From the NCBI GenBank assembly GCA_964429935.1, contig CAYSED010000005.1, positions 1 through 57,572 on the forward strand: a DNA stretch of 57,572 bases, written 5' to 3'. The stretch is from an uncultured Hyphomonadaceae bacterium. GTDB lineage: Bacteria > Pseudomonadota > Alphaproteobacteria > Caulobacterales > Hyphomonadaceae. The notes beneath the pieces were generated by a model. It had not been told where the DNA came from. It saw only the letters and a list, made by a program, of their open reading frames with translations, and did no database searches. Of the stretch, positions 13,421 through 51,076 are shown piece after piece. Both the position numbers and the translations under genes were made by a program. Numbering within the stretch: the stretch's first letter is position 1; each line of letters begins with the position of its first letter.

Positions 13421-14740
13421 ATGATTATCGTCGACACCGCCCTGAAACAGCGCGAAGCGGCGGGCCGTCCGGTCCGCGTCGGCATGGTCGGGGCAGGCTT
13501 CATGGGCTCCGGCATCGCGCTGCAGATTGCCCGGTCGGTGCCCGGCATGGTGCTCTGCGCCATTGCCGCCCGCCGCGCGGACCAGGCCGCGGCCGCCTTT
13601 GCGGCAAGCCGGACAGGCGAGACCGTGCGCAACGCCGATACGACCGCCGCCATCGAGGCGGCCATCCGCGACGGCGTGCCGGTCGTTACCGAGGACCCTG
13701 CGGCCATGGCACGCGCCGGCGGCCTCGATGTCATCATCGAGGCGACCGGCTCGATGGACTATGCCCTCCTCGCCGTCGAGGCGGCCATCGAGACCGGCAA
13801 GCATGTCGTCCTGATGAACTGCGAACTCGACGGCACCGTCGGGCCGCTTCTCAAGGCGCGCGCCGACAAGGCCGGCGTCATCCTGACCAATTGCGATGGC
13901 GACCAGCCGGGCGTCCAGATGAACCTCGTCCGCTTCGTCAGGTCGATCGGCGTCAGGCCGGTCCTCTGCGGCAATATCAAGGGCCTGCAGGACACGCGCC
14001 GCACGCCGGACACCCAGCGCGGCTTTGCCGAGAAATGGGGCCAGAACGTCAACATGGTGACGAGCTTTGCCGACGGCACCAAGATCGCCTTCGAGCAGGC
14101 CATTGTCGCCAACGCCACCGGCATGACGGTCGCCCGGCGCGGCATGATCGGCCCCGATCCGACCAATATGGACCCGACCCAGCCGCTCCGCCCGCTCGAG
14201 GACTATGTCGCCCTGCTCGCCCCGCACATCGATCCTGCCGGCCCCGGCATCGTCGATTTTGTCGTCGGCGCGCGGCCGGGTCCCGGCGTCTTCGTCCTCG
14301 GCACGCATGACGATCCGCGCCAGCAGCACTACCTCAATCTCTACAAGCTGGGGCAGGGGCCATACTACCTGTTCTACACGCCCTATCATCTCTGCCATTT
14401 TGAAGTGCCGCTGACGGCGGCGCGCGCCGCGCTCTTCCATGATGCCGCGCTTGCCCCGCTCGGGCGGCCAGAGGTGAGCGTCATCGCCGTCGCCAAGCGC
14501 GCCCTGAAGGCCGGCCATGTGCTCGACGGGATCGGCGGGTTCGACACATATGGCGTCGCCGAGACAAGCGCCGTCACCGCGCGCGACCGGCTCTTGCCGA
14601 TGGGTCTCGCCGAGGGCTGCACCCTCGCACGCGACATCGCGCCCGGAACGGCGCTCGCATTTTCCGATGTCGCGGTGCCGGCCGGCCGGCGCATCGACAC
14701 GCTATATGCCGAGATGGAAGCCCATTTCGGCCTGACATGA
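13421..14740 (+). CDS. NAD(P)-binding oxidoreductase with C-terminal SAF domain (COG4091-like)
   Basis: 439 aa with a Rossmann motif VRVGMVGAGFMGSGIA, a homoserine-dehydrogenase-like core and a C-terminal KRALKAGHVLDGIGGF segment. Confidence 0.68.
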   Translation: MIIVDTALKQREAAGRPVRVGMVGAGFMGSGIALQIARSVPGMVLCAIAARRADQAAAAFAASRTGETVRNADTTAAIEAAIRDGVPVVTEDPAAMARAGGLDVIIEATGSMDYALLAVEAAIETGKHVVLMNCELDGTVGPLLKARADKAGVILTNCDGDQPGVQMNLVRFVRSIGVRPVLCGNIKGLQDTRRTPDTQRGFAEKWGQNVNMVTSFADGTKIAFEQAIVANATGMTVARRGMIGPDPTNMDPTQPLRPLEDYVALLAPHIDPAGPGIVDFVVGARPGPGVFVLGTHDDPRQQHYLNLYKLGQGPYYLFYTPYHLCHFEVPLTAARAALFHDAALAPLGRPEVSVIAVAKRALKAGHVLDGIGGFDTYGVAETSAVTARDRLLPMGLAEGCTLARDIAPGTALAFSDVAVPAGRRIDTLYAEMEAHFGLT

Positions 14741-18651: not shown

Positions 18652-18681
18652 GAAGAACGCCTAGCACGGATCACGAAAAAG

Positions 18682-18698
18682 CTGGAGCGGGTACACGG
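18682..18698. repeat. Distal att direct repeat CTGGAGCGGGTACACGG (copy of the tRNA-Gly 3' end)
   Basis: It is identical to 28682-28698, and the flanking bases differ on both sides. Confidence 0.85.
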
Positions 18699-19032
18699 CG
18701 CAATATCCATAAATTTTTCTAATATTTTCTGGAGACTATTTAAAAAGTGACCCGGCAATGTTGCACAGATTGCCCGTCATTTGTTGCACGCTATCCTCGC
18801 GAACATCTGATTGTGCCGGTGGGGTTGGAGGCATTTTCGGGATAACCTCCATACTGTCTTGAAGCTTGAGATCCTGACGAAGCGTCAGAATTTTGTTGGC
18901 CGTCTCGGCCCCATGGGATCAAGAGGCCACAAATTAATGCTGGCAACCTTGAGGGGAAATCGAGCATAGGATTGACTTAGGGCAGCAGAGACAGCTTAAC
19001 TTCACATTCTGTTACTTTTAAGCTACTTGCCC

Positions 19033-19069
19033 AAAAAAGTGCCCCCGTCTGGTAGCGCAGAACGGGGGC
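19033..19069 (-). terminator. Intrinsic terminator-like hairpin for a leftward transcript
   Basis: GCCCCCGT (19041-19048) pairs with ACGGGGGC (19062-19069) across a 13-nt loop. Read on the minus strand it is followed by AC plus TTTTTT (19038-19033). Confidence 0.45.
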
Positions 19070-19095
19070 GTGACCACTCGCAGTTGGAGATTAGA

Positions 19096-19197
19096 ATGAT
19101 CGGTATCGTTCTAGCGAGAAAGCTTTTTTCATTCAATAGCCTCTCTCAGCGATCATTCCTTGTGACGATTCGATTAGCTTGCGACGTCCGGGAATGA
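19096..19197 (+). CDS. Candidate 33-codon upstream ORF translationally coupled to the ABC exporter
   Basis: GGAGA (19086-19090) lies 5 nt before the ATG. The peptide is MIGIVLARKLFSFNSLSQRSFLVTIRLACDVRE. Its TGA overlaps the exporter ATG (ATGA at 19194-19197). Confidence 0.25.
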   Translation: MIGIVLARKLFSFNSLSQRSFLVTIRLACDVRE

Positions 19198-21410
19198 GTC
19201 TGTCAATTCTGAACCTAACCGGCTTTCGCCGCCTGCCATTGCTGCGGCAGGCCGAAGCGGCGGAATGTGGCCTGGCCTGCGTCGGCATGTTGGCAGGCTT
19301 TCACGGCCACCAGACCGATCTGGCCAGCCTGCGCCGTGATTTCCCGATTTCGCTCAAGGGCGCGACACTGAGGGACGTGATCGAGATAGCGGCCCAGATG
19401 AAGCTTGGCGCGCGGGCTCTCAGGTGCGAGGTCGAGGAGCTGCGCGAGCTCAGGCTGCCGGCGATCCTGCATTGGGACATGAGCCATTTTGTGGTCTTGA
19501 AGCAGGTGACCCGGGACCGGGTCGTGCTTCATGATCCTGCGCGCGGCAGGGTTGATGTACCCCTGAGCGAGATCGGCGAGCACTTCACCGGCGTTGCACT
19601 GGAACTTGCACCCGCCTCCGGTTTCCAGAAGAAATCCGAGCGCAAGCTGATCAAGCTGACCAGCCTTGTGAAGATTGACAGCGCAGGCTGGAAAGCTGTC
19701 GCCCAGGGACTGGCACTGTCGCTGTTCCTGCAGGTCTTCGTCCTCCTCAGCCCCTACTACATGCAGCTCGTCATAGACGAGGCAATCCTCAAGGGCGACC
19801 TTTCGCTTCTCACGGCCGTGGCCGTCGGATTTGCTGGTCTCAAGCTGTTTGAGGCGATCACGACCGTTCTGCGCGGGCTCGTGTTTCAGTTCCTGTCTAA
19901 CATTGTCGCGTTCGACATGGAGGCCAGCCTCTTCCATCATCTGACGCGTCTGCCACTGTCTTACTTTCACAGGCGTCACATCGGCGACATCCAGCAGCGC
20001 TTCCAGTCGCTCGGACCCATCCGCGATCTTGTCGTCAACGGTGCGATTGCCGCCCTGATCGATGGCGTCCTTGCGGTATTTGTCGGCGCGATCCTTTTTG
20101 CCTATGACGCGCTGCTCGGCACGGTCGTCGTCGGTGTCATCATCTTCTACGGCATCTTGCGCTTTGCATTCCTCGAACTGTCCAAACGCCTGTCGGGCGA
20201 TCTTCTCGTCGCTGATGCCAAGGAGAATACCAAGTTCCTCGAAACCCTGCGGGCGATGCAGACGGTCAAGGTTGCAGGCATCGAGTCCGAACGCGAAATA
20301 CTCTGGCGCAATCTCGCGGCCCGGACGCTGAACGCCAATATCCGGATCGGCAATGTCAATATCGGCTATGGCGCGATCAGCCAGACGCTGATGGGACTGT
20401 CGAATATCGCCATTGTCTACCTCGCTGCCCAGGCAGCCATACAAGGCAACATGACAATCGGCATGATCACGGCGTTCATGGCCTACAAGGGCCAGTTCGA
20501 AGGCAAGCTGATGGCCCTCCTCGAACAATATGTGCAGCTCAAGCTACTCGACGTGCATCTGGCCCGCGTGGCCGACATTGCGCTCGCCGAGCCTGAAAAA
20601 GGCCTGGCAACACCTGCCATCGGCCGCGACTTTCGGGGCGAGGTCGAGCTGCGGCAGGTCATGTTTCGCTATGCGCCGTTCGAGCCCATGATCCTCAAGG
20701 GGGCGAACCTGAAGATCGAACCGGGCGAGTTCGTTGCCCTTGCCGCTCCGTCAGGCGAGGGCAAATCGACGCTGCTTCGCCTGATCCTCGGCCTTTATGA
20801 GCCGGTCAGCGGCCAGATCCTTTATGACGGACTGCCCGCGACGACCTGGGGCCTTGGCGCTCTGCGCCGCCAGATGGGCGTCGTCATGCAGGACGATACG
20901 CTTCTGGCCGGTTCGATCGAGGAGAACATATCCCTGTTCGATGACAAGCCGGACAATGAGCGCATCCGGTGGGCGGCCAAACTGGCTGCAATCCATGACG
21001 ATATCGAACAGATGCCCATGGCCTATCGCTCGCTGGTCGGCGACATGGGCACAAGCCTTTCCGGGGGCCAGCAGCAGCGCGTCATGCTCGCCAGGGCGCT
21101 TTACCGGAAGCCGAAGCTGCTTGTGATGGACGAGGGGACGAGCCAGCTCGACATTGAGACCGAGAAGCGGATCAATGCAGCGCTGAAGGATCTGGATATC
21201 ACGCGAATCGCTGCGGCTCATCGGCCTGACACGCTCGCGGCAGCGGACCGGATTGTACATGTGCGAGGCGGTCAACTTGGAGAGGTTCGGCCAAAGCCTG
21301 TTGCTCAAGGGGCAGTTCCAGCCCTGCTATCAACAAGTTTGACGGCGTCAAAAGCAAGAGGACGACTTCTCGCACCGATTGACACAGATATTTTTGACAC
21401 CGAGGATTGA
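19194..21410 (+). CDS. Bacteriocin-type ABC exporter with N-terminal C39 cysteine peptidase domain (CvaB/CdzA-like)
   Basis: The C39 catalytic Cys lies in AAECGLACVGM and the His in HFVVLKQV. There are six TM segments, Walker A APSGEGKST, signature LSGGQQQRVMLARAL and Walker B LLVMDEGTSQLD. Start at ATG 19194; the track uses TTG 19179. Confidence 0.9.
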   Translation: MSLSILNLTGFRRLPLLRQAEAAECGLACVGMLAGFHGHQTDLASLRRDFPISLKGATLRDVIEIAAQMKLGARALRCEVEELRELRLPAILHWDMSHFVVLKQVTRDRVVLHDPARGRVDVPLSEIGEHFTGVALELAPASGFQKKSERKLIKLTSLVKIDSAGWKAVAQGLALSLFLQVFVLLSPYYMQLVIDEAILKGDLSLLTAVAVGFAGLKLFEAITTVLRGLVFQFLSNIVAFDMEASLFHHLTRLPLSYFHRRHIGDIQQRFQSLGPIRDLVVNGAIAALIDGVLAVFVGAILFAYDALLGTVVVGVIIFYGILRFAFLELSKRLSGDLLVADAKENTKFLETLRAMQTVKVAGIESEREILWRNLAARTLNANIRIGNVNIGYGAISQTLMGLSNIAIVYLAAQAAIQGNMTIGMITAFMAYKGQFEGKLMALLEQYVQLKLLDVHLARVADIALAEPEKGLATPAIGRDFRGEVELRQVMFRYAPFEPMILKGANLKIEPGEFVALAAPSGEGKSTLLRLILGLYEPVSGQILYDGLPATTWGLGALRRQMGVVMQDDTLLAGSIEENISLFDDKPDNERIRWAAKLAAIHDDIEQMPMAYRSLVGDMGTSLSGGQQQRVMLARALYRKPKLLVMDEGTSQLDIETEKRINAALKDLDITRIAAAHRPDTLAAADRIVHVRGGQLGEVRPKPVAQGAVPALLSTSLTASKARGRLLAPIDTDIFDTED

Positions 21411-21554
21411 CCCGCTCGATCCGCTGTCCTTAACATCACGTCATGGCTGAAGAGTTTAGTCATCACGCAGGTTTGGGCATTCCAGTTCTTATTGGTCAGG
21501 CGCGTAGTGGCGCATCCTATAAATTGCGTGCAACTCGCAGAACGGAGACTAACA

Positions 21555-22430
21555 ATGCGGGAGCTAAAGGCATTTGAACTTGTGCAGGTAGGTGGCGGAT
21601 TTGATCCATTTACTGGGGAACGAATTTTAGACTCTGTTTTTGCTACGCTGAGAGGGGAAGGTGGAGGTGGGGCCAACGGTTTTTCGGGATTTGGGTTTGG
21701 AGCATTTGGACTTGGAGGCGCAAGTAGTCCGCTCGATAACCAGCCCGATGATGGCACGGGTTTTTCCCTGATCGAGATCGACGACGAAACCTACGTCGAC
21801 ACGCAACAAGGTCTTTCTGACGTCCAATTGATAGAGCTCGATTCCGCATTATCGAACCTACCTTCGGATGTGGTTGATGCAGCTTTGGCTTGGACGCAGG
21901 CCTTGAGTGCGTATGTCGAGAGTCTCGCAATACGAGCTGGACAGATGGGAGGGACGGCTGCTCAGTATGCAGAGGGCTTAGGCGGACTGGCAAAGGGCTT
22001 GGGAGCCCTTGCTGTTGCGCTTGAGGGGTACTCCATCTATCAATCCATGCAAGCAAATGGCGCTACTCCTGAAAACGTTTCGGCCGCGATTGGGCTGATC
22101 GCGGGCGTTGCTGCGGGTTGGGCCACTGGCGCCGCTGTTGGAGGAGTTTTTGGGGGGCCCGCTGGAGCACTTGTAGGCGCGTTCGTTGGGGCAGTTGTTG
22201 GTGCCGTTGGTCCTCTCGTATACGAGACAGTGTCGCAAAATGTTTCCGATTTCACGGCCTTCAACGAGGAGTTCAATAATTTCTTCGATCCGAATAGCGA
22301 CGGGGATGTTGATCTGGACCGAGTCCTTTCGCTCTTCACCGATACATCTACGTTCAATGATGGCAATCCGAACAACAATCCTGGTGGCGGTTGGGAAGAG
22401 CCAGATACGGGATTCTATTCGGAGCCATAG
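21555..22430 (+). CDS. Double-glycine-leader secreted protein (bacteriocin-like, glycine-zipper), 291 aa
   Basis: GGAGA lies 6 nt upstream of ATG 21555. The leader MRELKAFELVQVGGG fits the GG-leader consensus. The mature part contains the Gly-rich run GEGGGGANGFSGFGFGAFGLGG, the hydrophobic zipper IGLIAGVAAGWATGAAVGGVFGGPAGALVGAFVGAVVGAVG and an acidic Asn/Asp tail. Confidence 0.7.
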   Translation: MRELKAFELVQVGGGFDPFTGERILDSVFATLRGEGGGGANGFSGFGFGAFGLGGASSPLDNQPDDGTGFSLIEIDDETYVDTQQGLSDVQLIELDSALSNLPSDVVDAALAWTQALSAYVESLAIRAGQMGGTAAQYAEGLGGLAKGLGALAVALEGYSIYQSMQANGATPENVSAAIGLIAGVAAGWATGAAVGGVFGGPAGALVGAFVGAVVGAVGPLVYETVSQNVSDFTAFNEEFNNFFDPNSDGDVDLDRVLSLFTDTSTFNDGNPNNNPGGGWEEPDTGFYSEP

Positions 22431-22450
22431 TATTTTATAGCGAACACCTC

Positions 22451-22476
22451 AGGTGCGCTACGAAAGTGGCGCACCT
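22451..22476. terminator. Hairpin between convergent genes (possible bidirectional terminator)
   Basis: AGGTGCGC (22451-22458) pairs with GCGCACCT (22469-22476), followed by TCTTC. It lies between the bacteriocin-like gene and the minus-strand operon. Confidence 0.45.
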
Positions 22477-22514
22477 TCTTCGCTCTCAAGAACTACGAAA
22501 TTTAGCTTAAGCTC

Positions 22515-22805
22515 TTATTCTTCATGGCCTGATGCGACGAGCTGCTCAAGGCTTAAGCCGACTAAAATGATCGAAACCAGTGCCACGGCGAATGCGGATG
22601 CTAAGATCGGCTGATTTTGAAAACGAAGCATTGGAATGAAAGCAATAACCGAAAATCCAAATATTAAAGCAGCAAACCTTTCAAGCGGCTGCCTGTAAGT
22701 TATCCGATTTTTGCATGACGGACAATTAAATACAGCGCCGTGGCGACGTTTAATTTTGCCACCTAGAGGCATAGCCCAACTACACTTTGGACATTTTGCG
22801 ACCAT
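22515..22805 (-). CDS. Small zinc-ribbon protein with two C-terminal TM helices (candidate immunity/accessory protein)
   Basis: 96 aa with CPKC...17 aa...CPSC, then FAALIFGFSVIAFIPML and ILASAFAVALVSIILVGLSL. It is the last gene of the HlyD operon. Confidence 0.55.
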   Translation of the reverse strand: MVAKCPKCSWAMPLGGKIKRRHGAVFNCPSCKNRITYRQPLERFAALIFGFSVIAFIPMLRFQNQPILASAFAVALVSIILVGLSLEQLVASGHEE

Positions 22806-22855
22806 TTTGGATGCTCCTGATAAATATTGGGACTAAACGCATAAATTTACACCTT

Positions 22856-24796
22856 TTAAGGTGTGGCGCATTCAATTAAATCAGTTATCGAAGTTGCGCG
22901 TTGCGGATAGTTAATAGTAGTGTGGCCCTGTTCTGGAATTACTTGAATTCTTGTACAATCGCGTTTTTCCAATGTCTCAAAGAAGTCTTCTACAAAGTCA
23001 CTGCGGATCAATTCGTCCCTCTCTCCCGCAAAAATCCAAATCGGCGTTTCTCGAGCTTTTCTTTGTACTGACCTGAGACTCGGTTCAATCATTGAATTGG
23101 CTGGCGCCCTGATCTTGGGTTCTCGGGAGCCCTGATCGATCTCACAGTGCTCCTCTGCATAGGCCAACATCGTAAGCCGGTTCGACGCCTCATTGGGTGA
23201 TCGATAAAAGCGGTTTCTGCTGCGTTGATCTGCAGTTCGTTCTTGAAGCATGTGGCAGACGGAAAGCAATGGTGCATCAAGTGCTACAAAGGAGATTTCT
23301 TTGTCCGTAGCTGCCAGACTAGCTGCAACGGCAAAGCCGCCAAAACTGCCCCCGCTTAGGCCTATGGGTTTGTCGGGTAGAAGTTCATGAGCAAGCTCAA
23401 TAAATTCAGATGTCTCAGCGCTTAAGTCTTCGAATGAAAAGTTGTAGATTCGTCGCGTATGCTCTCCACCGTACCGTGTTGAGCCGCTAATTTCCGGCAT
23501 GATGACGCGATAATTTTTCTCAAGCCATGGTGCTACAAGTTGTTCATCGGTCCTGGATGCGGAGGCGGCGGGGCCACCATGAAAATGGATGAGAGTTCCT
23601 TCAACCTCACCTGGCGGCTCGAATATCCAATAGGGAGTTTCACCTGCGGACGTCCTGAGCGTGGCCCAGCTCCGTGGCGCACGGTTTATTTCAGCATTGT
23701 CGTAAAGATGATGAAGTTGAAGCTCGCCGTCGCGCCAGACCAGTAAGGCGTTTTTCCCTGCCGTGGTTTCAAGCAAACCAATTGCGAAATCGTCACTCAC
23801 ATCGACATGCACGTCCTGCAAAATGACAGCATTGTCAGGCAACTCTGCTCGTAGCTTGTTAATTAGCCTTTCTGTCATTGGGGATGTATCCAGGACATCA
23901 AATGGTGGCAGTACATTTATAGAACCACCGAACTCTACGCCTGGTAGTGAAATCATGGACCGATGCGATGTCGCGAGGTCGGACAGCTTTTTCACTGAGG
24001 TCACGATGCCTGTGTCCTGTTTCGAGAATTCGAGCAGATATCGGATCGAATTGTCAGCTTGAGCGACTGCAAAACCCGACGAACCAGCTGAGACATGTGT
24101 CTCTGTTCGGAGGGCCGCAATTGAAGCTCCAAGGGGAAAGGTTTCAATTCCTGAAGCCTCTTCGGTATGTACGTTGAGGTCGAACTGATCAGAGCTGGAC
24201 GGTGAGATCCAAGCTATTACTTGAGCATTTGACGCCCAAGACCGAAATACCGTGCTTAAGGCTGGAATCGGAGGACCCGGCGAGTTGGTATCGATGTTCC
24301 AACCAGCAAGCTGGCGGGGCGGTTGGCCTTCAAGATACTGGTCCACATGTATAGGTATATAGGCGTAGTTGCGGTCGATGCTAAACACACCGGCGGCAGT
24401 TGTTGATCGGTAGGACTTATCTGCCGACTCAGTCCATAAGCCGACCCGCTCTATGGTCCCGGTCTGTACGTCGATACGAAAGACCTCCCGGCTATTCGAA
24501 TAGGCGAGCAATTCGTCCTCGTGAATGAACCCCTGCAAAAGAATTCTGTCTGGGAGCGGGATTTCATGGATGACCTTAGCGGCTCGATCAATAAGTAGAA
24601 TGCCATCGCTGAACTCTAGCGCAAACATATTGCCTGACGGCGATGCGACGAGTTGTTCGATATTCGTGAAGTCGTTCGTCTCGATTGAGCGGCCTGTCAG
24701 AGGCATCGTCGAGCCGGGGCCCTTCTCGCATGCTCCGGTAACAGCAATCAGACTTAAGATTATGCTGTATCTGAGAGCACATTTTACGACAAACAT
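22856..24796 (-). CDS. Lipoprotein with N-terminal beta-propeller-like region and C-terminal S9 (prolyl oligopeptidase-type) alpha/beta-hydrolase domain
   Basis: Signal/lipobox SLIAVTGAC, nucleophile elbow GLSGGSFGGF, acid IFAGERDELI and His IPEQGHTT, in the order Ser-Asp-His. Confidence 0.75.
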   Translation of the reverse strand: MFVVKCALRYSIILSLIAVTGACEKGPGSTMPLTGRSIETNDFTNIEQLVASPSGNMFALEFSDGILLIDRAAKVIHEIPLPDRILLQGFIHEDELLAYSNSREVFRIDVQTGTIERVGLWTESADKSYRSTTAAGVFSIDRNYAYIPIHVDQYLEGQPPRQLAGWNIDTNSPGPPIPALSTVFRSWASNAQVIAWISPSSSDQFDLNVHTEEASGIETFPLGASIAALRTETHVSAGSSGFAVAQADNSIRYLLEFSKQDTGIVTSVKKLSDLATSHRSMISLPGVEFGGSINVLPPFDVLDTSPMTERLINKLRAELPDNAVILQDVHVDVSDDFAIGLLETTAGKNALLVWRDGELQLHHLYDNAEINRAPRSWATLRTSAGETPYWIFEPPGEVEGTLIHFHGGPAASASRTDEQLVAPWLEKNYRVIMPEISGSTRYGGEHTRRIYNFSFEDLSAETSEFIELAHELLPDKPIGLSGGSFGGFAVAASLAATDKEISFVALDAPLLSVCHMLQERTADQRSRNRFYRSPNEASNRLTMLAYAEEHCEIDQGSREPKIRAPANSMIEPSLRSVQRKARETPIWIFAGERDELIRSDFVEDFFETLEKRDCTRIQVIPEQGHTTINYPQRATSITDLIECATP

Positions 24797-24832
24797 CCTA
24801 GAACCTATTGGACTTGATACGGTGCGCGCGAC

Positions 24833-26077
24833 TTAGCGCAGTGAAAGCAACGGCTCCAGGAGCCACTCGACGAGTTTTCGATCCTCAAGCACGATATCGG
24901 CAGAAAGCTCCATTCCAGACTGAAGGGCGATGTCTTGGCCAAAGGCGCGAACCGACTGGGCGGCGAGTGCTACCTCCACCTTGTACACAGGTTCCGGGTT
25001 TTGCGACAAAATACCCAGTTCTTGCGGGAACAGAGTCGTCTCCGATACGCGGGCAACATATCCTTCAGCTACGCCAAATTTCTGATAGGGCAGTGCGTCG
25101 TATAGGAGCTTTACTGGCTTTCCTAGCTCGACAAAGGCTATGGCGCGCGAGGGCACATGCAACTCAGCAATAAGCTCTGCACCAGGGGGCCCGATCGCAA
25201 GTAGCGGGATCGTTGGGTCGGCACGCTCTCCGACACGAGCTTGAAGCGCCGTTACCTTTCCACTCATCGGGGCTGTAACAAGGTGCATTGCACTCGCCTC
25301 AGTTTGGCGCATCTGAGAATCGAGCTGAGCCAGCCTTTGGCCGATATCAGCTTGATCGCGGTTCAAGTCGGAACGAATTCTGCGCTTCTCGATCACTAGG
25401 CGGCTTTGCGCTGCTTCGGCGGCACTGATCTGAGCTTCAAGCTGCAAGCGGGACTGGTCGAGTACCGCGACATCGTCGGTACGCTGCATATGCTCGGCGG
25501 CTGTGATTAACCCTTCATCCAAAAACCGCTCAGTATCAGTCGCACGGTGGCGAGCTGTCTGAAGGCGCTGAACGAGCACAGCAAGCTGCGCTCTGCCCTC
25601 AGATTCCTGTCGCGCGGCATCTGCAACTCTCTGGGCAAGATCATCCTCGGCAATTTGCGCCGCAGCCCTAAGCTCGCTTAGTCGGTCATTAAGCAGAGTC
25701 TGTTCAAGTGACAAGGCCGACAAAGCATTGTCGCTCAGGCTGTCTCCATCATCCAAAATCCGGTCACTTGCGATAGTTGCTAGCGGTGTGCCGGCTTCAA
25801 CAATGGCTCCGTCGGCGATGAGGACTTGCTTCACGATACCGGACTCAACGGCGTAAACCCGTGCCTCTGAGCCGTCCGGCCGTAGCTTGCCGCGTACGGT
25901 TTCTTTGCGGGCGAAGTTCGCGGTGAACAGGAATACGAGGAGCGCAGCGATGAACAGTCCGATCAACCAGGTGATGCGTGACCAAGCCGGAGGAACGACG
26001 CCGGTAGGGCGTCCGTAAAGCTCGTTGCTAGCCGTATGCGCCTCCAGAACCTCTTCCCTGAATAGTCCGTCAGCCAT
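24833..26077 (-). CDS. HlyD-family membrane fusion protein (CvaA/CdzB-like T1SS adaptor)
   Basis: N-terminal TM ITWLIGLFIAALLVFLF, lipoyl-like GIVKQVLIADGAIVEAGTPLATI, a long coiled coil and C-terminal VKLLYDALPYQKFGVAEGYV. Start at ATG 26077 (MADGLFREE) with AGGAA upstream. Confidence 0.85.
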   Translation of the reverse strand: MADGLFREEVLEAHTASNELYGRPTGVVPPAWSRITWLIGLFIAALLVFLFTANFARKETVRGKLRPDGSEARVYAVESGIVKQVLIADGAIVEAGTPLATIASDRILDDGDSLSDNALSALSLEQTLLNDRLSELRAAAQIAEDDLAQRVADAARQESEGRAQLAVLVQRLQTARHRATDTERFLDEGLITAAEHMQRTDDVAVLDQSRLQLEAQISAAEAAQSRLVIEKRRIRSDLNRDQADIGQRLAQLDSQMRQTEASAMHLVTAPMSGKVTALQARVGERADPTIPLLAIGPPGAELIAELHVPSRAIAFVELGKPVKLLYDALPYQKFGVAEGYVARVSETTLFPQELGILSQNPEPVYKVEVALAAQSVRAFGQDIALQSGMELSADIVLEDRKLVEWLLEPLLSLR

Positions 26078-26478
26078 CGTTGCTTTATTCCTGTCATCAA
26101 CTTTTATTAGATAGCCCATAGAAGGCTGCAAAGTAAATTCTTTCAATTTCGGATCGGACAGTACCGCCATCTAAGCGATCCTCACGAGCGCATGAAGGCA
26201 TGACAGGAAGGTCGGGTTTAGTGAGGGCAAGATTAAAGGGTTGGCACCCTCGGCCCCTTAACCCCTTGTCTGCACATCGCTTTTTTGGTGCCCTGTGCAC
26301 AGGCATGTGGCGTACGGGTATTGGGAGGTTCCCCGGTGCCGCTGGGTGGCGCGTACGCCAGGGTTTGCAAGGCCTTGCGCGGGCTTGCAAGATGTTGCGG
26401 GGAATACCGCATAAACCAACTGGTCCGTACCCGCCCGGCGATGCAGTCTGGGAGCCTCGATCAGGAGGCCCAACCCAA

Positions 26479-26862
26479 GTGAAACCCCGCGTCCATCTCC
26501 GGCTCGATCCTGCCCTGCTCGGCCAGCTTGAGCGCACCGCGCGCCAGGGCAAGACGACGAAGACCGCCCTGCTGGAAGCGGCGCTCCGGCTCTATTTCGA
26601 CCCGGCCCGCAACCTGCCTCTGGAGGAGCGCCTGTTCCGGCGGCTCGAATGGCGGGGCAACCTTCAGGTTGAGGCGCTGATGCAGTTTGTCCTTTACTGG
26701 CTCACCCATACCGAAACCCTGATCGAGGGCGACCGCGACTTTGCCCATGCGCGCGGGCGGCGGCGCATGGACTATTTCATCGACCAGGTGGCAAGCCGGC
26801 TCGGCAACCGGCGCACGCTGGCGCAGGAATCCTGGCGCTGGGAAGGGCCAAAGCTCGAATAG
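26479..26862 (+). CDS. Ribbon-helix-helix (CopG-like) protein
   Basis: GTG 26479 follows AGGAGG (26463-26468). VKPRVHLRLDPALLGQLERTARQGKTTKTALLEAALRLYF has the beta-alpha-alpha pattern of RHH regulators. Confidence 0.5.
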   Translation: MKPRVHLRLDPALLGQLERTARQGKTTKTALLEAALRLYFDPARNLPLEERLFRRLEWRGNLQVEALMQFVLYWLTHTETLIEGDRDFAHARGRRRMDYFIDQVASRLGNRRTLAQESWRWEGPKLE

Positions 26863-26931
26863 GCAGGCCTTGCGAGCAATTGCACGCAAACCGACTGGGC
26901 GGGGCTGCCGTCCTCTGGGACACTCTTGCGC

Positions 26932-27252
26932 ATGTCCCGTCCTTCCGATGCCGAGATTGAACACGCCATCCGGACCGTCGCCTCCCTGATAGACCGGTTC
27001 GGCGATGCCTACTGGCCGGTGCTCGACATGCTGGAGGCTGAACTTGCTGCGCGCCGCGCCAGGGCCGGAAAGCTCGCTGCCTGGCTCGGGAACAGTTCGC
27101 TGCGAGAGCCATCAGGCCGAATGGCAGGGCCTGCCATTCGGCCACGTCCAGCCTCCTTGCCTGTGTCCGGGCGCGTCAAGGGTCGCGTTCGCGACCGCAC
27201 GGCGGCCCGGCCCTTGACCCGCCCGGACACAGGCGACACGCAACGCGGCTAG
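26932..27252 (+). CDS. Hypothetical protein of the integration module (3' part uncertain, reads through palindromes)
   Basis: MSRPSDAEIEHAIRTVASLIDRFGDAYWPVLDMLEAELAARRARAGKL looks protein-like. The C-terminal third is encoded by inverted repeats that translate similarly on both strands. Confidence 0.3.
   Translation: MSRPSDAEIEHAIRTVASLIDRFGDAYWPVLDMLEAELAARRARAGKLAAWLGNSSLREPSGRMAGPAIRPRPASLPVSGRVKGRVRDRTAARPLTRPDTGDTQRG
27115..27143. repeat. Perfect 29-nt palindrome GGCCGAATGGCAGG-G-CCTGCCATTCGGCC
   Basis: 14-nt arms read directly from the sequence. Confidence 0.8.
27160..27233. repeat. Large inverted repeat (23-nt arms, 22/23 complementary, 28-nt spacer)
   Basis: CCTGTGTCCGGGCGCGTCAAGGG (27160-27182) against CCCTTGACCCGCCCGGACACAGG (27211-27233). 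Confidence 0.8.
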
Positions 27253-27359
27253 GCCTCCTCGCTCACGCCGGTCGGCTGTCGCCGACGGCTCCGCGGGGGC
27301 GGCGCAGGCGCGCCGGGCGACGTTTGTCGCCTGTCGCGCGTCTGCGGCAGACAGAAGCG

Positions 27360-28496
27360 CTAAGCGAACATATCCTTCGGGAACGGGTGCGCAATCTTGA
27401 GCAGTTCGTCGCGTCGCCAGGCAAGCGAGCCGCCATCGCCATAGGCAGGCCGGTTCGTCGCATGGCCCATCAGCAGGCAGCGCAGGCCATAGTCGAGCCC
27501 GGCCTCCAGCATGCGCTTCTCGAACGCGTGCCGGAACGAATAGATGACATGCCTGTCTGTCGGAAACAGGCCGCGATTGCGGAACGCCTTGACGAGGGAC
27601 TGGGAGAGAAGGTCGTTCCGGTCGCGATAATGCGGGAACCCGTTCCTTGCCCCTTTCATCGCTTCCAGCGACACCCCGACCAGCGGAATGTCGCGGATCG
27701 AGGATCCGGTCTTGATCTCGCGGCCCTTGTGCGGCCGGATGCGGATATGCGGCACGTCCGCATCAAGGCAGATATCGTCCGCCAGCAGGTTGGCAATCTC
27801 GCTCGGCCGACAGCCTGTCTCGATCAGGACATAGACGATGCGCCGGGCCTCGTCCTTGATGCCGGCCAGGGCGTCCGGCACGAGGATCTTGTCGCGCACC
27901 CAGGCATCCGGGAAGGGCGGCGTCTCGGCGAGGCTCGCTTCCCGGAACGAGAGATTGCGGAACGGGTTCGGGCGGTCCTCCTCGCCGATGTGCCGGAAAT
28001 ACTCGCGCAGGAGCTTCCGCAGGTTGCCAAGATCGCGATTGGCCGTGTTGGCCCCTCTTGCCGCAACGCCATTCTTCGGCTTCAGGCGACCGGCCCACCA
28101 ATTGTAGAATTCGAGTGCGTCCGCGCGGGTGATCGCCTCGACGGGCTTGTCGCCGACAAGCTCGATGAAATAGGCAATCGCCCGCTGCTTGGTCTTGCGC
28201 CAGAGCCGCTTCTGGTTCGGCGACTTGTTGAGAAGCTCGCCAATCGCGATCCGCTCGCAATAGGTCTCGAAGGCTTCCGAGAGGAGCGTGGCGGGCCGCT
28301 GCACGCCGCCGAGCAGGGCATCGGCTTCGGCCTTGACCGCTAGCCTTGCATCCCCGGTATCGACCCGCTCGACCGCGCTGATGCGCTTCATCACTTCCTC
28401 AAGGGCAATCAGCGCGGGAAACTCATCGGCTGGCGCATAGGAGAAGCCGCGCGAGACGGCCCGCGCGACGGCCGAGCGATAGCGCCGTTCGGCCAT
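27360..28496 (-). CDS. int: Tyrosine-type site-specific integrase
   Basis: 378 aa with ETGCRPSEIANL (catalytic Arg region), YSFRHAFEKRM and LLMGHATNRPAYGDGG (His/Tyr). It is adjacent to the tRNA-Gly 3' end. Confidence 0.9.
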   Translation of the reverse strand: MAERRYRSAVARAVSRGFSYAPADEFPALIALEEVMKRISAVERVDTGDARLAVKAEADALLGGVQRPATLLSEAFETYCERIAIGELLNKSPNQKRLWRKTKQRAIAYFIELVGDKPVEAITRADALEFYNWWAGRLKPKNGVAARGANTANRDLGNLRKLLREYFRHIGEEDRPNPFRNLSFREASLAETPPFPDAWVRDKILVPDALAGIKDEARRIVYVLIETGCRPSEIANLLADDICLDADVPHIRIRPHKGREIKTGSSIRDIPLVGVSLEAMKGARNGFPHYRDRNDLLSQSLVKAFRNRGLFPTDRHVIYSFRHAFEKRMLEAGLDYGLRCLLMGHATNRPAYGDGGSLAWRRDELLKIAHPFPKDMFA

Positions 28497-28681
28497 GGCC
28501 CTCGCCGAACCGGCCGCGTTTCTGCAGGTACCGGTCTTCGTTCCGCATCGCGCTCAGCTCCCCGCGCATCTGATGCCAATTGATACACGGAAAGTTACGC
28601 AAAACACGCACCCCAGCCAAGCTGGAGCGGTGTGGATAGTGGTTAAGCAACTGATTTAACAGGATAAAAGGCTCTGGGCCT

Positions 28682-28698
28682 CTGGAGCGGGTACACGG
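28682..28698. repeat. tRNA-proximal att direct repeat CTGGAGCGGGTACACGG
   Basis: Identical to 18682-18698. It covers the last 16 nt of tRNA-Gly plus 1 nt. Confidence 0.85.
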
Positions 28699-28756
28699 GA
28701 TCGAACCGAGATCGGTAGCTTGGAAGGCTACTGCATTACCATTATGCTATACCCGC
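28683..28756 (-). tRNA. glyT: tRNA-Gly (anticodon UCC)
   Basis: The reverse complement GCGGGTATAGCATAATGGTAATGCAGTAGCCTTCCAAGCTACCGATCTCGGTTCGATCCCGTGTACCCGCTCCA folds as a cloverleaf. Stems are acceptor 7 bp, D 4 bp and anticodon 5 bp, with loop CTTCCAA, T-loop TTCGATC and an encoded CCA. There is one U-U mismatch in the T stem. Confidence 0.9.
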
Positions 28757-29132
28757 CATCCGGCAGCCCCGCTAGATACGCGCCGCGCCCCGGCCATGCA
28801 AGGGGGAGGGGCGTTCGCGAGCCCGGAGCCAGTTTCCCCGTGATGCGTCACCCCCGATGAGCGCCAGCCATCTGGGGGCCCATCTCCCGCAACCTGAACC
28901 AGAGCACCCGTGGCCTAGTTCCGAGATAGGTCCCCAGACCGCTTCGCGGCCGGGGGTGACGAACGTTGGGTTAGGGAAAAGTGGTTAGCCTGCTGACCCA
29001 TCTCCTGATTGGCGGCTCACCGCGGCTTGATAGCGGGGCCCATCTCCGGAAGGTAACCTGTTGCCAGAAGCGTCATATTTACTGGCGCAGAGCCATCAGC
29101 CCGCAGAGCGGCATCCCATCGCGAAGCGGGGG

Positions 29133-29416
29133 ACATCAACAAAGTATCATTCACCGCGCAAATCGGTCCACCGGACCGATTTGTCGTCGGAGCACAGCCT
29201 TGAGCCCGTTTCATGCGAGCGCAGCGAGCGGAAACAAACCAGGAAAATCATTTTGCGCCGGATTTGATCCACCGGATCAAATCATTCGCTGGCGCGAAGC
29301 GGCTATGTGCAGCCTTGAGCCCCGTTCCATGTGAGCGGCATAGCCGCGATACGGGAACATCAAAGAATCATTCACCGCGAAAATCGGTCCACCGGACCGA
29401 TTTTCGGTCGGTGAAT
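29133..29416. repeat. Three related hairpin modules with conserved TCC-ACC-GGA apex plus two copies of CAGCCTTGAGCCC(C)GTT(T/C)CATG(C/T)GAGCG
   Basis: Hairpins at 29160-29182, 29261-29283 and 29381-29403; the last extends to 29370-29416. The second motif occurs at 29195-29221 and 29310-29338. Confidence 0.8.
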
Positions 29417-29500
29417 GGTGGAGGGGACAGGATTCGAACCTGTGTACGCTATGCGGGCAGATTTACAGTCTGCTGCCTTTAACCACTCGGCCACCCCTCC
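29416..29500 (-). tRNA. tyrU: tRNA-Tyr (anticodon GUA)
   Basis: The reverse complement is GGAGGGGTGGCCGAGTGGTTAAAGGCAGCAGACTGTAAATCTGCCCGCATAGCGTACACAGGTTCGAATCCTGTCCCCTCCACCA. It is 85 nt with a long variable arm, anticodon loop CTGTAAA and an encoded CCA. Confidence 0.92.
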
Positions 29501-49961: not shown

Positions 49962-50120
49962 GGCGGGGCGCGGCGTGCCGAAAACAAGGTGCGCCAATCC
50001 TTCGCCTTTGGTGGCGTCTTCACCGGATATTCCGGAAGACCAGACGAGAGAGCCATCAACGCGGGACGATAACCGCCAAAGGCTCGGAGCGAGCCGCCAG
50101 CGGCCCGCTCCGCTTTCCTT

Positions 50121-50687
50121 CTACAAATGTTTCCAGAAGACGACTTTGTCGGCTCCTGCTCCGTAGAACTCCCGGATGCGGGCCTCCTCGATATAACCGT
50201 TCTTGCGATAGAACTCGCGTGTCCGTCCGAATTCGGGCGTTCCCATCGTTTCCACCAATAGAATGCGCTCGCTTTGCCCGGCGAGATAAGCTTCGAGATA
50301 TGCCATCATTCTTGCACCGTGGCCTTGCCCTTGGCTCGGCGGGCTTACCCCGATGGCAAGCAAGTTCCAGGTGCCGTCGGTCATGCGTTCGGGTTCACAG
50401 AAACAGAATGAAATGACATCTCCCCCAATGTCGCCAACGAACCAGATGTCGCGGGTTGAACGGGTAAGATAGCCATCAATCATGGCTTCGAGCATGTCGG
50501 AGGGAAACAACTCAGTTTCGTCAGCGATGGTCGCGATGACGGGGATGTCCCGTCCTTCGGCGAGGCGGATGTTCAAGTATTGTTTCAATGTCTTGGACTT
50601 TCGATAAGGCCAATAGGCAGTGCCGCTCTGCGGCACGGTCAAACTGGCAAGAGATTGCCTGGAAATTGTGGAATGAATGCCGGACAT
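50121..50687 (-). CDS. GNAT-family N-acetyltransferase
   Basis: The acetyl-CoA motif lies in LLAIGVSPPSQGQGHGARMMAYLE. The gene is visibly AT-richer than its neighbours. Confidence 0.75.
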   Translation of the reverse strand: MSGIHSTISRQSLASLTVPQSGTAYWPYRKSKTLKQYLNIRLAEGRDIPVIATIADETELFPSDMLEAMIDGYLTRSTRDIWFVGDIGGDVISFCFCEPERMTDGTWNLLAIGVSPPSQGQGHGARMMAYLEAYLAGQSERILLVETMGTPEFGRTREFYRKNGYIEEARIREFYGAGADKVVFWKHL

Positions 50688-51076
50688 AACAATGTCCCAG
50701 CGCTATCGCGCTGGCATTCGGTTCTGGGTGCCCTGAAAGATCAGGACCCGCGGCGATCCGCAATCGTAAACATAAAATCTCCATGCCGCGACGAACGCTT
50801 GGCTCCTTTTGCTCGCATGCCTTGGTTGCGTGCGCAATGACTGAAGCAGCTCGGTGTTGAGCTTGGACGCTTCAAGCCGTCGAACTAATAATGGCCTTTG
50901 CCCGAGTAAGTGCGTGGATCCGGTCCATTCATGCCATCAGGAAAGTTGAACGGAGTTGCTTCAATTACGGTGTTCCAGGCCCCATCCCCTTGCACCCCCT
51001 GCCATCTTGTTGCCGCTTGTGGTTGCCAACACTATCATCACTCATGTCGAGGTCGCATCGGACGGAAGGATCAGTC

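Follow-up and report, generated by a model that had tools for sequence, protein, structure and literature searches.

The contig CAYSED010000005.1 (assembly GCA_964429935.1, from an uncultured marine Hyphomonadaceae bacterium), analyzed here over its entire public length of 57,572 bp (hereafter the window), carries a 10-kb stretch that is a genuine foreign island, of a well-known kind, situated at the 3' end of a tRNA-Gly gene. Considering its boundaries, its integrase gene and its cargo jointly, we read this stretch as a tRNA-Gly island whose integrase gene was truncated by a deletion, and which is most likely fixed in the chromosome and carries a bacteriocin-type secretion cargo, a reading to which we assign a probability of about 0.75. 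While the island type is textbook, the substrate family of its cargo is undescribed.

The island is bounded by a perfect 17-bp direct repeat, CTGGAGCGGGTACACGG, which the initial annotation of this DNA had located at 18682-18698 and 28682-28698. Both the coordinates and the start-to-start spacing of 10,000 bp were exact. Moreover, a search that tolerated two mismatches found no further copy in the window, with zero matches expected by chance (100 shuffles). As had been proposed, the copy at 28682-28698 (the attL core) comprises the last 16 nt of tRNA-Gly(UCC), i.e., the acceptor 3' strand, the discriminator and CCA, plus 1 nt; the tRNA gene itself (28683-28756, minus strand) is intact, as established using ARAGORN and Rfam (tRNA, 66.5 bits). 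It adjoins a tRNA-Tyr gene (29416-29500), and an Rfam scan of the window returned these two tRNAs and nothing else. The distal copy at 18682-18698 would be the attR core, i.e., the displaced tRNA-Gly 3' end. The island thus delimited spans 10.0 kb (18682/18699-28698), and an independent assembly of the same run gave the same island length, with one mismatch over 12,045 bp and no indels. The exact 10,000-bp spacing is real but coincidental; a second allele of the island, from another sample, has indels.

A tyrosine-integrase open reading frame (ORF; 27360-28496, minus strand) lies beside the tRNA copy of the repeat, as annotated, placing a recombinase gene at the tRNA-proximal end, though this gene is 5'-deleted and frameshifted (see below). 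From this layout we infer a past integration event, in which recombination between the 3' end of tRNA-Gly(UCC) and the attP of an element with a DUF6538-type tyrosine integrase would have duplicated 17 bp while leaving the tRNA intact. The reconstructed attB reads ...CACGAAAAAG-CTGGAGCGGGTACACGG-GATCGAACC..., with GAAAAAG preceding CTGGAGCGGGTACACGG on the left side, and the reconstructed attP reads ...GGCCT-CTGGAGCGGGTACACGG-CGCAATATCC....

The sequence composition changes at these same positions: GC content, GC content at third codon positions (GC3) and tetranucleotide content all step at the repeats. The island has a GC content of 0.568, compared to 0.667 outside it, and is itself heterogeneous, with 0.541 in the cargo (18699-26200) and 0.649 in the integrase module (26201-28681). 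GC3 follows the same pattern, ranging from 0.39 to 0.73 in the cargo genes and from 0.83 to 0.91 in the flanking genes, and returning to 0.82 in the ribbon-helix-helix (RHH) and integrase genes. In 2-kb windows, the tetranucleotide distance reached up to 15.5 standard deviations (sd) over the window background. These measurements bear out the earlier description of a sharp shift, which had relied on the G+C counts of two 60-nt lines (25 at 22861 and 44 at 13441, both correct), as well as its view of the island as a mosaic, in which foreign cargo of lower GC content is joined to a GC-rich module for integration.

The integrase ORF has more than 1,100 homologues, and homologues with 62-78% identity are found directly after tRNA-Gly genes in five other loci. 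The closest of these (L168, 78%) occupies tRNA-Gly(UCC) at the same rlmB/tRNA-Tyr/tRNA-Gly site; others follow tRNA-Gly(GCC) (L169 and L175), tRNA-Gly(CCC) (L176, 73%) or a tRNA-Gly-like 3' fragment (L164-L167). Judging by these positions, the family evidently targets the shared 3' end, CCCGCTCCA, of the tRNA-Gly(UCC), (GCC) and (CCC) genes. The complete genome of Parasphingopyxis algicola (L175) provides a sister case, in which a 17-bp tRNA-end repeat bounds a 9.2-kb island with HEPN-type cargo. Of note, in a Hyphomonas genome (L164-L166, 2075-11377) a P4-type island at tRNA-Leu(CAG), with an integrase, an AAA ATPase, an S8 peptidase, AlpA and a homologue of the RHH protein, is directly followed by the tRNA-Gly-like 3' fragment and a DUF6538 integrase; this arrangement looks tandem or nested, and no complete tRNA-Gly is present in it. 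An origin from a phage or a plasmid was considered and ruled out: the arm motif (described below) and the integrase were absent from the viral contigs searched, the predicted secreted cargo protein was absent from the plasmids searched, and the integrase gave a single 38% match among them.

In comparison with the class of tRNA-targeting islands that carry P4- or lambda-type integrases, the island shares integration at a tRNA 3' end that regenerates the tRNA, a 17-bp repeat, an integrase at the tRNA-proximal end, a deviant composition and short repeated motifs in both arms. It differs in that its integrase family uses tRNA-Gly genes of three anticodons and has a second core-like box at a fixed spacing. 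Furthermore, the family of the window's integrase has an N-terminal DUF6538 domain, deleted here, in place of the Arm-DNA-bind_3 domain found in the P4-like integrase that L164 carries in its neighbouring island.

Further evidence for the boundary came from the second island allele, found on a contig from another sample (L082, SRR22250811). Comparing it with the window, we found no differences over 459 positions (442 bp of flank and the 17-bp repeat), followed by 105 differences over the 495 positions just inside. Divergence thus rises from 0% to 21% less than about 10 bp to the right of the attR core, which sets the boundary exactly where the initial annotation had put it. The exporter gene of the cargo (an ABC transporter, described below) differs between the alleles at 3.3% of positions, corresponding to 58 synonymous and 11 non-synonymous codons. 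Had the two alleles diverged in place, this level of synonymous divergence would predict ~10 differences in the coding part of the flank, where none was seen; the island, or at least its cargo, has thus been exchanged independently of the chromosome.

Weighing on the other side is the search for an unoccupied site, which found none: the collections include no close relative of the host (best protein identities 59-63%). A scan of 185,579 species genomes based on rlmB returned nothing closer than 59% (Hyphomonas and Henriciella), a metagenome scan based on the patatin gene gave 63% at best, and the exact reconstructed attB pattern was absent from the JGI metagenomes. Likewise, exact-protein look-ups with the DUF1272 flank protein showed that all four contigs encoding an identical protein also carry the island, while the rlmB ORF as delimited here had no exact-protein record. 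In the distant Hyphomonas and Henriciella loci, tRNA-Gly is free of an integrase, but synteny is missing as well. A missing empty site is what one would see if there were no island at all, the repeat being a chance match and the low-GC stretch native. We give this alternative virtually no credence, given that no match to the 17-mer is expected by chance, that the repeat is exactly the tRNA 3' end adjoining an integrase gene, that the composition steps by 5-15 sd, that allele divergence begins exactly at the repeat and that a sister island has the same 17-bp layout. Insertion by site-specific recombination at tRNA-Gly(UCC), as initially proposed, is supported by the identity of repeat and tRNA end, by the integrase, by the sister islands and by the allele boundary.

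We then characterized the integrase gene, which turned out to be a remnant (27360-28548, minus strand). Nearly all of its best 120 homologues have a length of 457-460 aa and begin with a DUF6538 domain (PF20172, residues 7-61), in which 14 residues are invariant. Upstream translation located the family start, MRNEDRYLQKRGR, at 28548 in another frame than the residual ORF, and DNA alignment against three homologues showed a single gap. In a tblastn comparison, homologue residues 1-13 mapped to 28548-28510 and residues 77-457 to 28508-27366 in the other frame. A net 188-nt frameshifting deletion at 28509 has removed codons 14-76, i.e., the whole N-terminal domain, leaving an ATG at 28548 with 13 codons of the original protein (this frame meets a stop after 41 codons) and a residual ORF of 378 aa (27360-28496) with the core-binding and catalytic domains. 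The initial annotation was therefore right in placing an integrase ORF beside the tRNA, and homologue length, DNA alignment and tblastn refine it to a 5'-deleted, frameshifted remnant.

The catalytic part has retained the residues of a tyrosine recombinase: across 20 sequences, the window's among them, R310, K342, R402, H425 and Y432 (P0004 numbering) do not vary, Tyr replaces the first His of HxxR throughout the family, and the integrase profile aligns with XerA (4A8E) over boxes I and II. In a single-sequence search of the PDB, a match to a repeat protein was spurious. The window's integrase scored 25.9 bits against Pfam Phage_integrase, below the gathering cut-off of 27.1, and full-length homologues scored similarly (P0004, 26.9 bits; P0007, 29.4 bits), the DUF6538 integrase family being divergent from this profile. 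No second integrase of the family was found within the window by tblastn.

Since the deletion removes the integrase N-terminus out of frame and the island has no transfer genes, it is most likely fixed in place; it is probably no longer self-mobile, or could move only with help from an intact relative. Some observations speak against this. An ORF of 378 aa, starting from an internal ATG, still encodes the whole catalytic part and may confer some activity, and simple tyrosine recombinases function without an arm-binding domain. DUF6538 itself had no PDB match and a probability of 0.4% in an hhalign comparison with the lambda Int N-domain, and what speaks for its necessity is its conservation, i.e., near-universal retention and the 14 invariant residues. 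A role for DUF6538 as a lambda-type arm-binding domain was likewise considered and, given these PDB and hhalign results, is unsupported by its sequence; our literature search returned no mention of DUF6538.

An island that is still autonomously mobile, with a 378-aa protein made from the ATG at 28496 sufficing for recombination, would fit the uninterrupted residual ORF with all its invariant catalytic residues, a GAGG-like motif just upstream of that ATG, the conserved motifs retained in both att arms, the two island alleles within an identical flank (suggestive of recent exchange) and the existence of a few other N-terminally short family members. We consider it improbable. The domain that is missing here, with its 14 invariant residues, is kept in more than 100 homologues; the deletion is out of frame and hence a lesion rather than a designed short form; the GAGG lies merely 3-4 nt from the ATG; and homologous recombination through the flanks could explain the exchange of alleles. 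Moreover, arm repeats that stay conserved point to some portion of the protein that recognizes them, precisely the one missing. Two integrase homologues encoded on megabase contigs (P0026 and P0103, 363 and 350 aa) are also N-terminally short, reflecting either recurrent loss of DUF6538 or a gene-calling artefact.

The deletion left both att sites intact, and their arms contain several conserved motifs. In the integrase-proximal arm (28581-28630, minus strand), a CCGCTCC box (28624-28630) and the motifs GCGTAACT (28593-28600) and GTGTATCA (28581-28588) are conserved in all five related loci (L168, L169, L164, L175 and L176). There, 59-60 bp (in L175, 69 bp) separate the box from the copy of its heptamer in the tRNA end, and the box precedes the integrase ATG by 75-80 bp; next to it comes a TTTGCGTAAC.TTC.GTG stretch, likewise conserved, with two GYGYAWCA repeats 12 bp apart. 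A relative with a different target (L178) lacks the box. In the opposite arm, two GTGCAACA repeats, 23 bp apart (18759-66 and 18782-89, minus strand), are candidate integrase sites; they are the sole two copies in the window, with 0.8 expected. Both are kept in the second allele despite diverged bases between them, and L175 has the pair GTGCAACA/GTGCAGCA with the same 23-bp spacing and equally far from its own attR.

The box and the repeats are likely integrase-binding or regulatory sites of attP. Tempering this assignment, their roles are deduced from the conservation observed across six loci, with a motif that was chosen once the data had been inspected. DUF6538 integrases may read the box as a second copy of the tRNA-Gly core, 60 bp inside attP, a possible reason why a single family has all tRNA-Gly isoacceptors as its targets.

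The same box underlies a feature that the initial annotation had noticed as a partial third copy of the repeat, namely the 12-mer AAGCTGGAGCGG, which is present at 18679-18690 and again at 28619-28630. Its coordinates were exact, and the suggestion that it could be an integrase arm site fits the conservation of the box; the other suggestion, a vestige of an earlier event, does not, as the box occurs at a fixed spacing in related islands. We judge it highly unlikely that this copy is the scar of an earlier integration, i.e., a decayed att site. In favour of a scar, the 12 bp match the attR junction including 3 bp of chromosomal flank, and a 34-nt stretch is 71% identical to the flank. Nevertheless, five other islands, which differ in host and in the tRNA-Gly gene occupied, have the same box 59-60 bp (69 in one case) away from the tRNA end, indicating that it travels with the element; the same TTTGCGTAAC.TTC.GTG stretch follows it in those five islands; and the additional similarity to the flank is not found in those loci and is probably due to chance. 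The third copy was also considered as a terminator and rejected: the terminator-like hairpin formed by the box region is confined to the window, is not conserved, shows no covariation in related islands and folds no better than shuffled sequences (z-score -1.1).

Next to the integrase, the GC-rich module holds two further genes. One encodes a 127-aa RHH protein (26479-26862, plus strand; weak match to Pfam RHH_1), which is 50% identical (E 5e-31) to an RHH protein encoded beside the TraG-type coupling-protein gene of L176. The other, orf108 (26926-27252, plus strand), is small and converges on the integrase gene; over 93 aa its product shares 50% identity with that of an L176 ORF which has the same position and orientation, covers approximately the first 55 codons, and it matched no family in Pfam or NCBIfam. 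L176 is itself part of an element resembling an integrative and conjugative element (ICE), with a TraG-type coupling protein, DUF3363, an S26 peptidase, DUF736 and conjugation-type genes. Since three genes are common to both, namely those for the integrase (73% identity) and the RHH protein (50%) together with the convergent orf108, the GC-rich module at 26.2-28.7 kb is evidently the remainder of an ICE-type backbone. The two elements differ in that the island lacks the coupling protein, relaxase and mating-pore genes (none among its ORFs in Pfam and NCBIfam searches), and carries a lower-GC bacteriocin-type secretion block instead. Between the convergent orf108 and integrase genes we also observed a 27-nt inverted repeat (27159-27234; 93% complementary, 22-nt spacer), which may be a bidirectional terminator or a binding site.

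The cargo is centered on a secretion system. Its exporter is a peptidase-containing ABC transporter (PCAT; 19194-21410, plus strand), in which a C39 peptidase (Pfam Peptidase_C39, 1e-32) is fused to a transmembrane domain (ABC_membrane) and an ATPase (ABC_tran). The best solved structure, PCAT1 (4RY2), matched over the full length (7e-91), and the C39 domain aligned with LahT150 (6MPZ), including the catalytic cysteine (ECG) and histidine (HFVVL). A HlyD-family type I secretion periplasmic adaptor is encoded further along the island (24833-26170, minus strand; Pfam HlyD_3 and HlyD_D23; NCBIfam type_I_hlyD, 3.9e-39, under that model's cut-off). Counting against a complete system, no outer-membrane channel gene was found within the island, to which this examination was confined. 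Upstream of the exporter operon lie a 29-nt hairpin (19041-19069), GCCCCCGT…ACGGGGGC, and a promoter-like site (together 19041-19097, plus strand), which may form a regulatory element; they are 100% kept between the two alleles, while the surrounding 495 bp are 79% identical.

Adjacent to the exporter gene, we identified its candidate substrate, a 291-aa protein (21555-22430, plus strand) with a double-glycine (GG) leader and a glycine-zipper, colicin-like hydrophobic domain. The leader, MRELKAFELVQVGGG, places L4, E8, L9, V12, G14 and G15 at positions -12, -8, -7, -4, -2 and -1, and the same pattern is present in two homologues (P0122 and P0126). A word-based indexed search with this protein retrieved only itself; however, an exhaustive HMMER scan of 1.84 billion representatives recovered two full-length relatives (E 4e-8 and 6e-6), both with MREL…E…V.G(G/A) leaders, so that the family comprises three clusters among these representatives. 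Residues 175-224 form a ~50-residue hydrophobic glycine-zipper stretch. The other matches of the scan share a ~110-aa motif, LxKGLGxLGxxxxGYxIYDD…GGPxGxxVGxxVGxVxG, which is often C-terminal, and one of these proteins has a WXG100 N-terminal domain above the Pfam cut-off. A WXG100 N-terminus combined with a C-terminal domain is a layout typical of polymorphic toxins, and distant phyla seem to combine this one domain with differing routes of secretion. Five proteins (P0127, P0130, P0134, P0137 and P0138), one with a WXG100 N-terminus, share the motif LxRGLGxLGxxAxGYGVYDDIQSGES….

When a profile of the three full-length sequences was compared with the PDB, the top three matches were colicin Ib (0.007), pyocin S5 (0.02) and colicin E1 (0.12); a nine-sequence profile matched pyocin S5 at 1.5e-4, and colicin Ib ranged from 0.007 to 0.025 over both profiles. 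Based on this domain and its neighbours, we favor, as somewhat more likely than not, the view that the 291-aa product is a membrane-inserting toxin, with immunity probably conferred by a zinc-ribbon protein with two transmembrane segments encoded nearby. In the proposed mechanism, the C39 domain would cut the 15-residue leader after G15, as family knowledge suggests; the PCAT, the HlyD adaptor and an outer-membrane channel of the host would export the resulting 276-residue protein; its hydrophobic glycine-zipper domain would insert into target membranes and kill competitors; and the zinc-ribbon protein would protect the producer.

The candidate immunity protein is a 96-aa product (22515-22805, minus strand) with a CxxC...CxxC zinc ribbon and two hydrophobic segments, whose ORF was not called by the collection's gene caller. 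A zinc-ribbon protein with two transmembrane segments is also encoded in another locus (L173), directly after the GG-leader homologue P0122 (pairwise E 3e-5). The second accessory gene encodes a 646-aa lipoprotein-like alpha/beta hydrolase (22856-24796, minus strand; S9/S33-like, with a beta-rich N-terminal half; Pfam Hydrolase_4, Abhydrolase_1 and Peptidase_S9). It had weak PDB matches to S9 peptidases, its sole homologue in a word search was the one in the second allele (P0143, 94%), and its predicted structure was too poor to use (predicted local distance difference test score, pLDDT, 33.4). In a further locus (L174), the gene after that of the GG-leader homologue P0126 encodes a lipoprotein whose C-terminus is an alpha/beta hydrolase (pairwise 1e-4). 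Because these pairwise similarities are weak (3e-5 and 1e-4), the apparent linkage of both accessory genes to GG-leader relatives is drawn from shared architecture.

Several results argue for caution regarding the toxin assignment. The GG-leader protein matched no curated family; its score against Pfam Colicin (PF01024) was 15.1 bits (E 0.021), compared to a cut-off of 23.4, and the hydrophobic Gly/Ala-rich segment may inflate both this score and the profile matches; the top PDB match of the wider profile was a phage glycine-zipper protein, making compositional bias a real risk; and the predicted structure was unusable (pLDDT 40.7). It could be, then, that the protein is no bacteriocin, and that the 276-aa product is a surface, adhesion or signalling protein acting on the producer itself, processed or anchored by its neighbours. 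Such a role would suit a protein without a curated family match, far larger than class II microcins, and with 100 N-terminal residues that look disordered and acidic; in addition, a lipoprotein hydrolase is unusual in bacteriocin loci, and PCATs are generally known to export non-toxic peptides too. We nonetheless find it unlikely, as the hydrophobic domain is common to the C-termini of WXG100-type proteins, each of the three best PDB matches of the three-sequence profile was a pore-forming domain of a colicin or pyocin, two loci link the gene to one for a small membrane protein in the manner of an immunity gene, and the locus is allelically diverse and horizontally carried.

Export of GG-leader bacteriocins by a PCAT and a HlyD protein is familiar from colicin V (CvaAB) and from the glycine-zipper system of Caulobacter (CdzAB/CdzCD). 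Like these, the island encodes a C39 ABC transporter with Cys and His, a HlyD adaptor, a 15-residue GG leader, a glycine-zipper hydrophobic segment and a small membrane protein alongside. In contrast to the small mature peptides of class II microcins and Cdz systems (<~10 kDa, <~100 aa), the mature product is 276 aa long; colicin V itself (MccV) gave no match above noise (E 0.07, with one relative), the immunity candidate differs in having a zinc ribbon, and a lipoprotein hydrolase gene is linked. In comparison to pore-forming colicins and pyocin S5 (PDB 6THK, 8IOM, 2I88 and 1CII), the protein shows a weak profile match over an amphipathic helix and the ~50-residue hydrophobic hairpin. Pore-forming colicin loci have a convergent gene for a small inner-membrane immunity protein just downstream, and a candidate for such a gene lies just downstream on the opposite strand here as well. 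Unlike colicins, however, the protein has no receptor-binding or translocation domains and no accompanying lysis gene, and its release would depend on a leader and type I secretion rather than on lysis.

As a broader and more tentative proposal, which we regard as possible rather than probable, these loci may represent an undescribed family of ~250-300-aa GG-leader bacteriocins, with a pore domain resembling those of colicins and pyocin S5, export by PCAT and HlyD proteins, zinc-ribbon immunity and a dedicated lipoprotein serine hydrolase, the domain being found also in Gram-positive WXG100-type toxins; the reading of a second core copy by DUF6538 integrases is a separate proposal of the same tentative kind. 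The near-orphan secreted protein may link leader-dependent, microcin-type export with a colicin-like pore domain; if this is confirmed, the bacteriocins known from Gram-negative marine bacteria would span a broader range. As for the island, it offers a clean example of probable fixation, in which one 188-nt deletion removes the N-terminal domain of the integrase, and it outlines the att-site architecture and tRNA-Gly specificity of the unstudied DUF6538 integrase family.

Two additional features were observed outside the island. The spacer between tRNA-Tyr and tRNA-Gly (28757-29415) is 659 bp long, compared to 31-170 bp in relatives, and contains two 54-nt units (29137-29190 and 29358-29411) that are 89% identical, each with the palindrome AATCGGTCCACCGGACCGATT. 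This palindrome is found nowhere else in the window, and the spacer looks like a small insertion resembling a repetitive extragenic palindromic element or a miniature inverted-repeat transposable element. In addition, a second, smaller dip in GC content (0.555) occurs at 50000-51000, over a GNAT acetyltransferase gene (50121-50687, minus strand); this gene, which may have been acquired on its own, has two Band-7/SPFH genes on one side and a DegP-like protease gene on the other.

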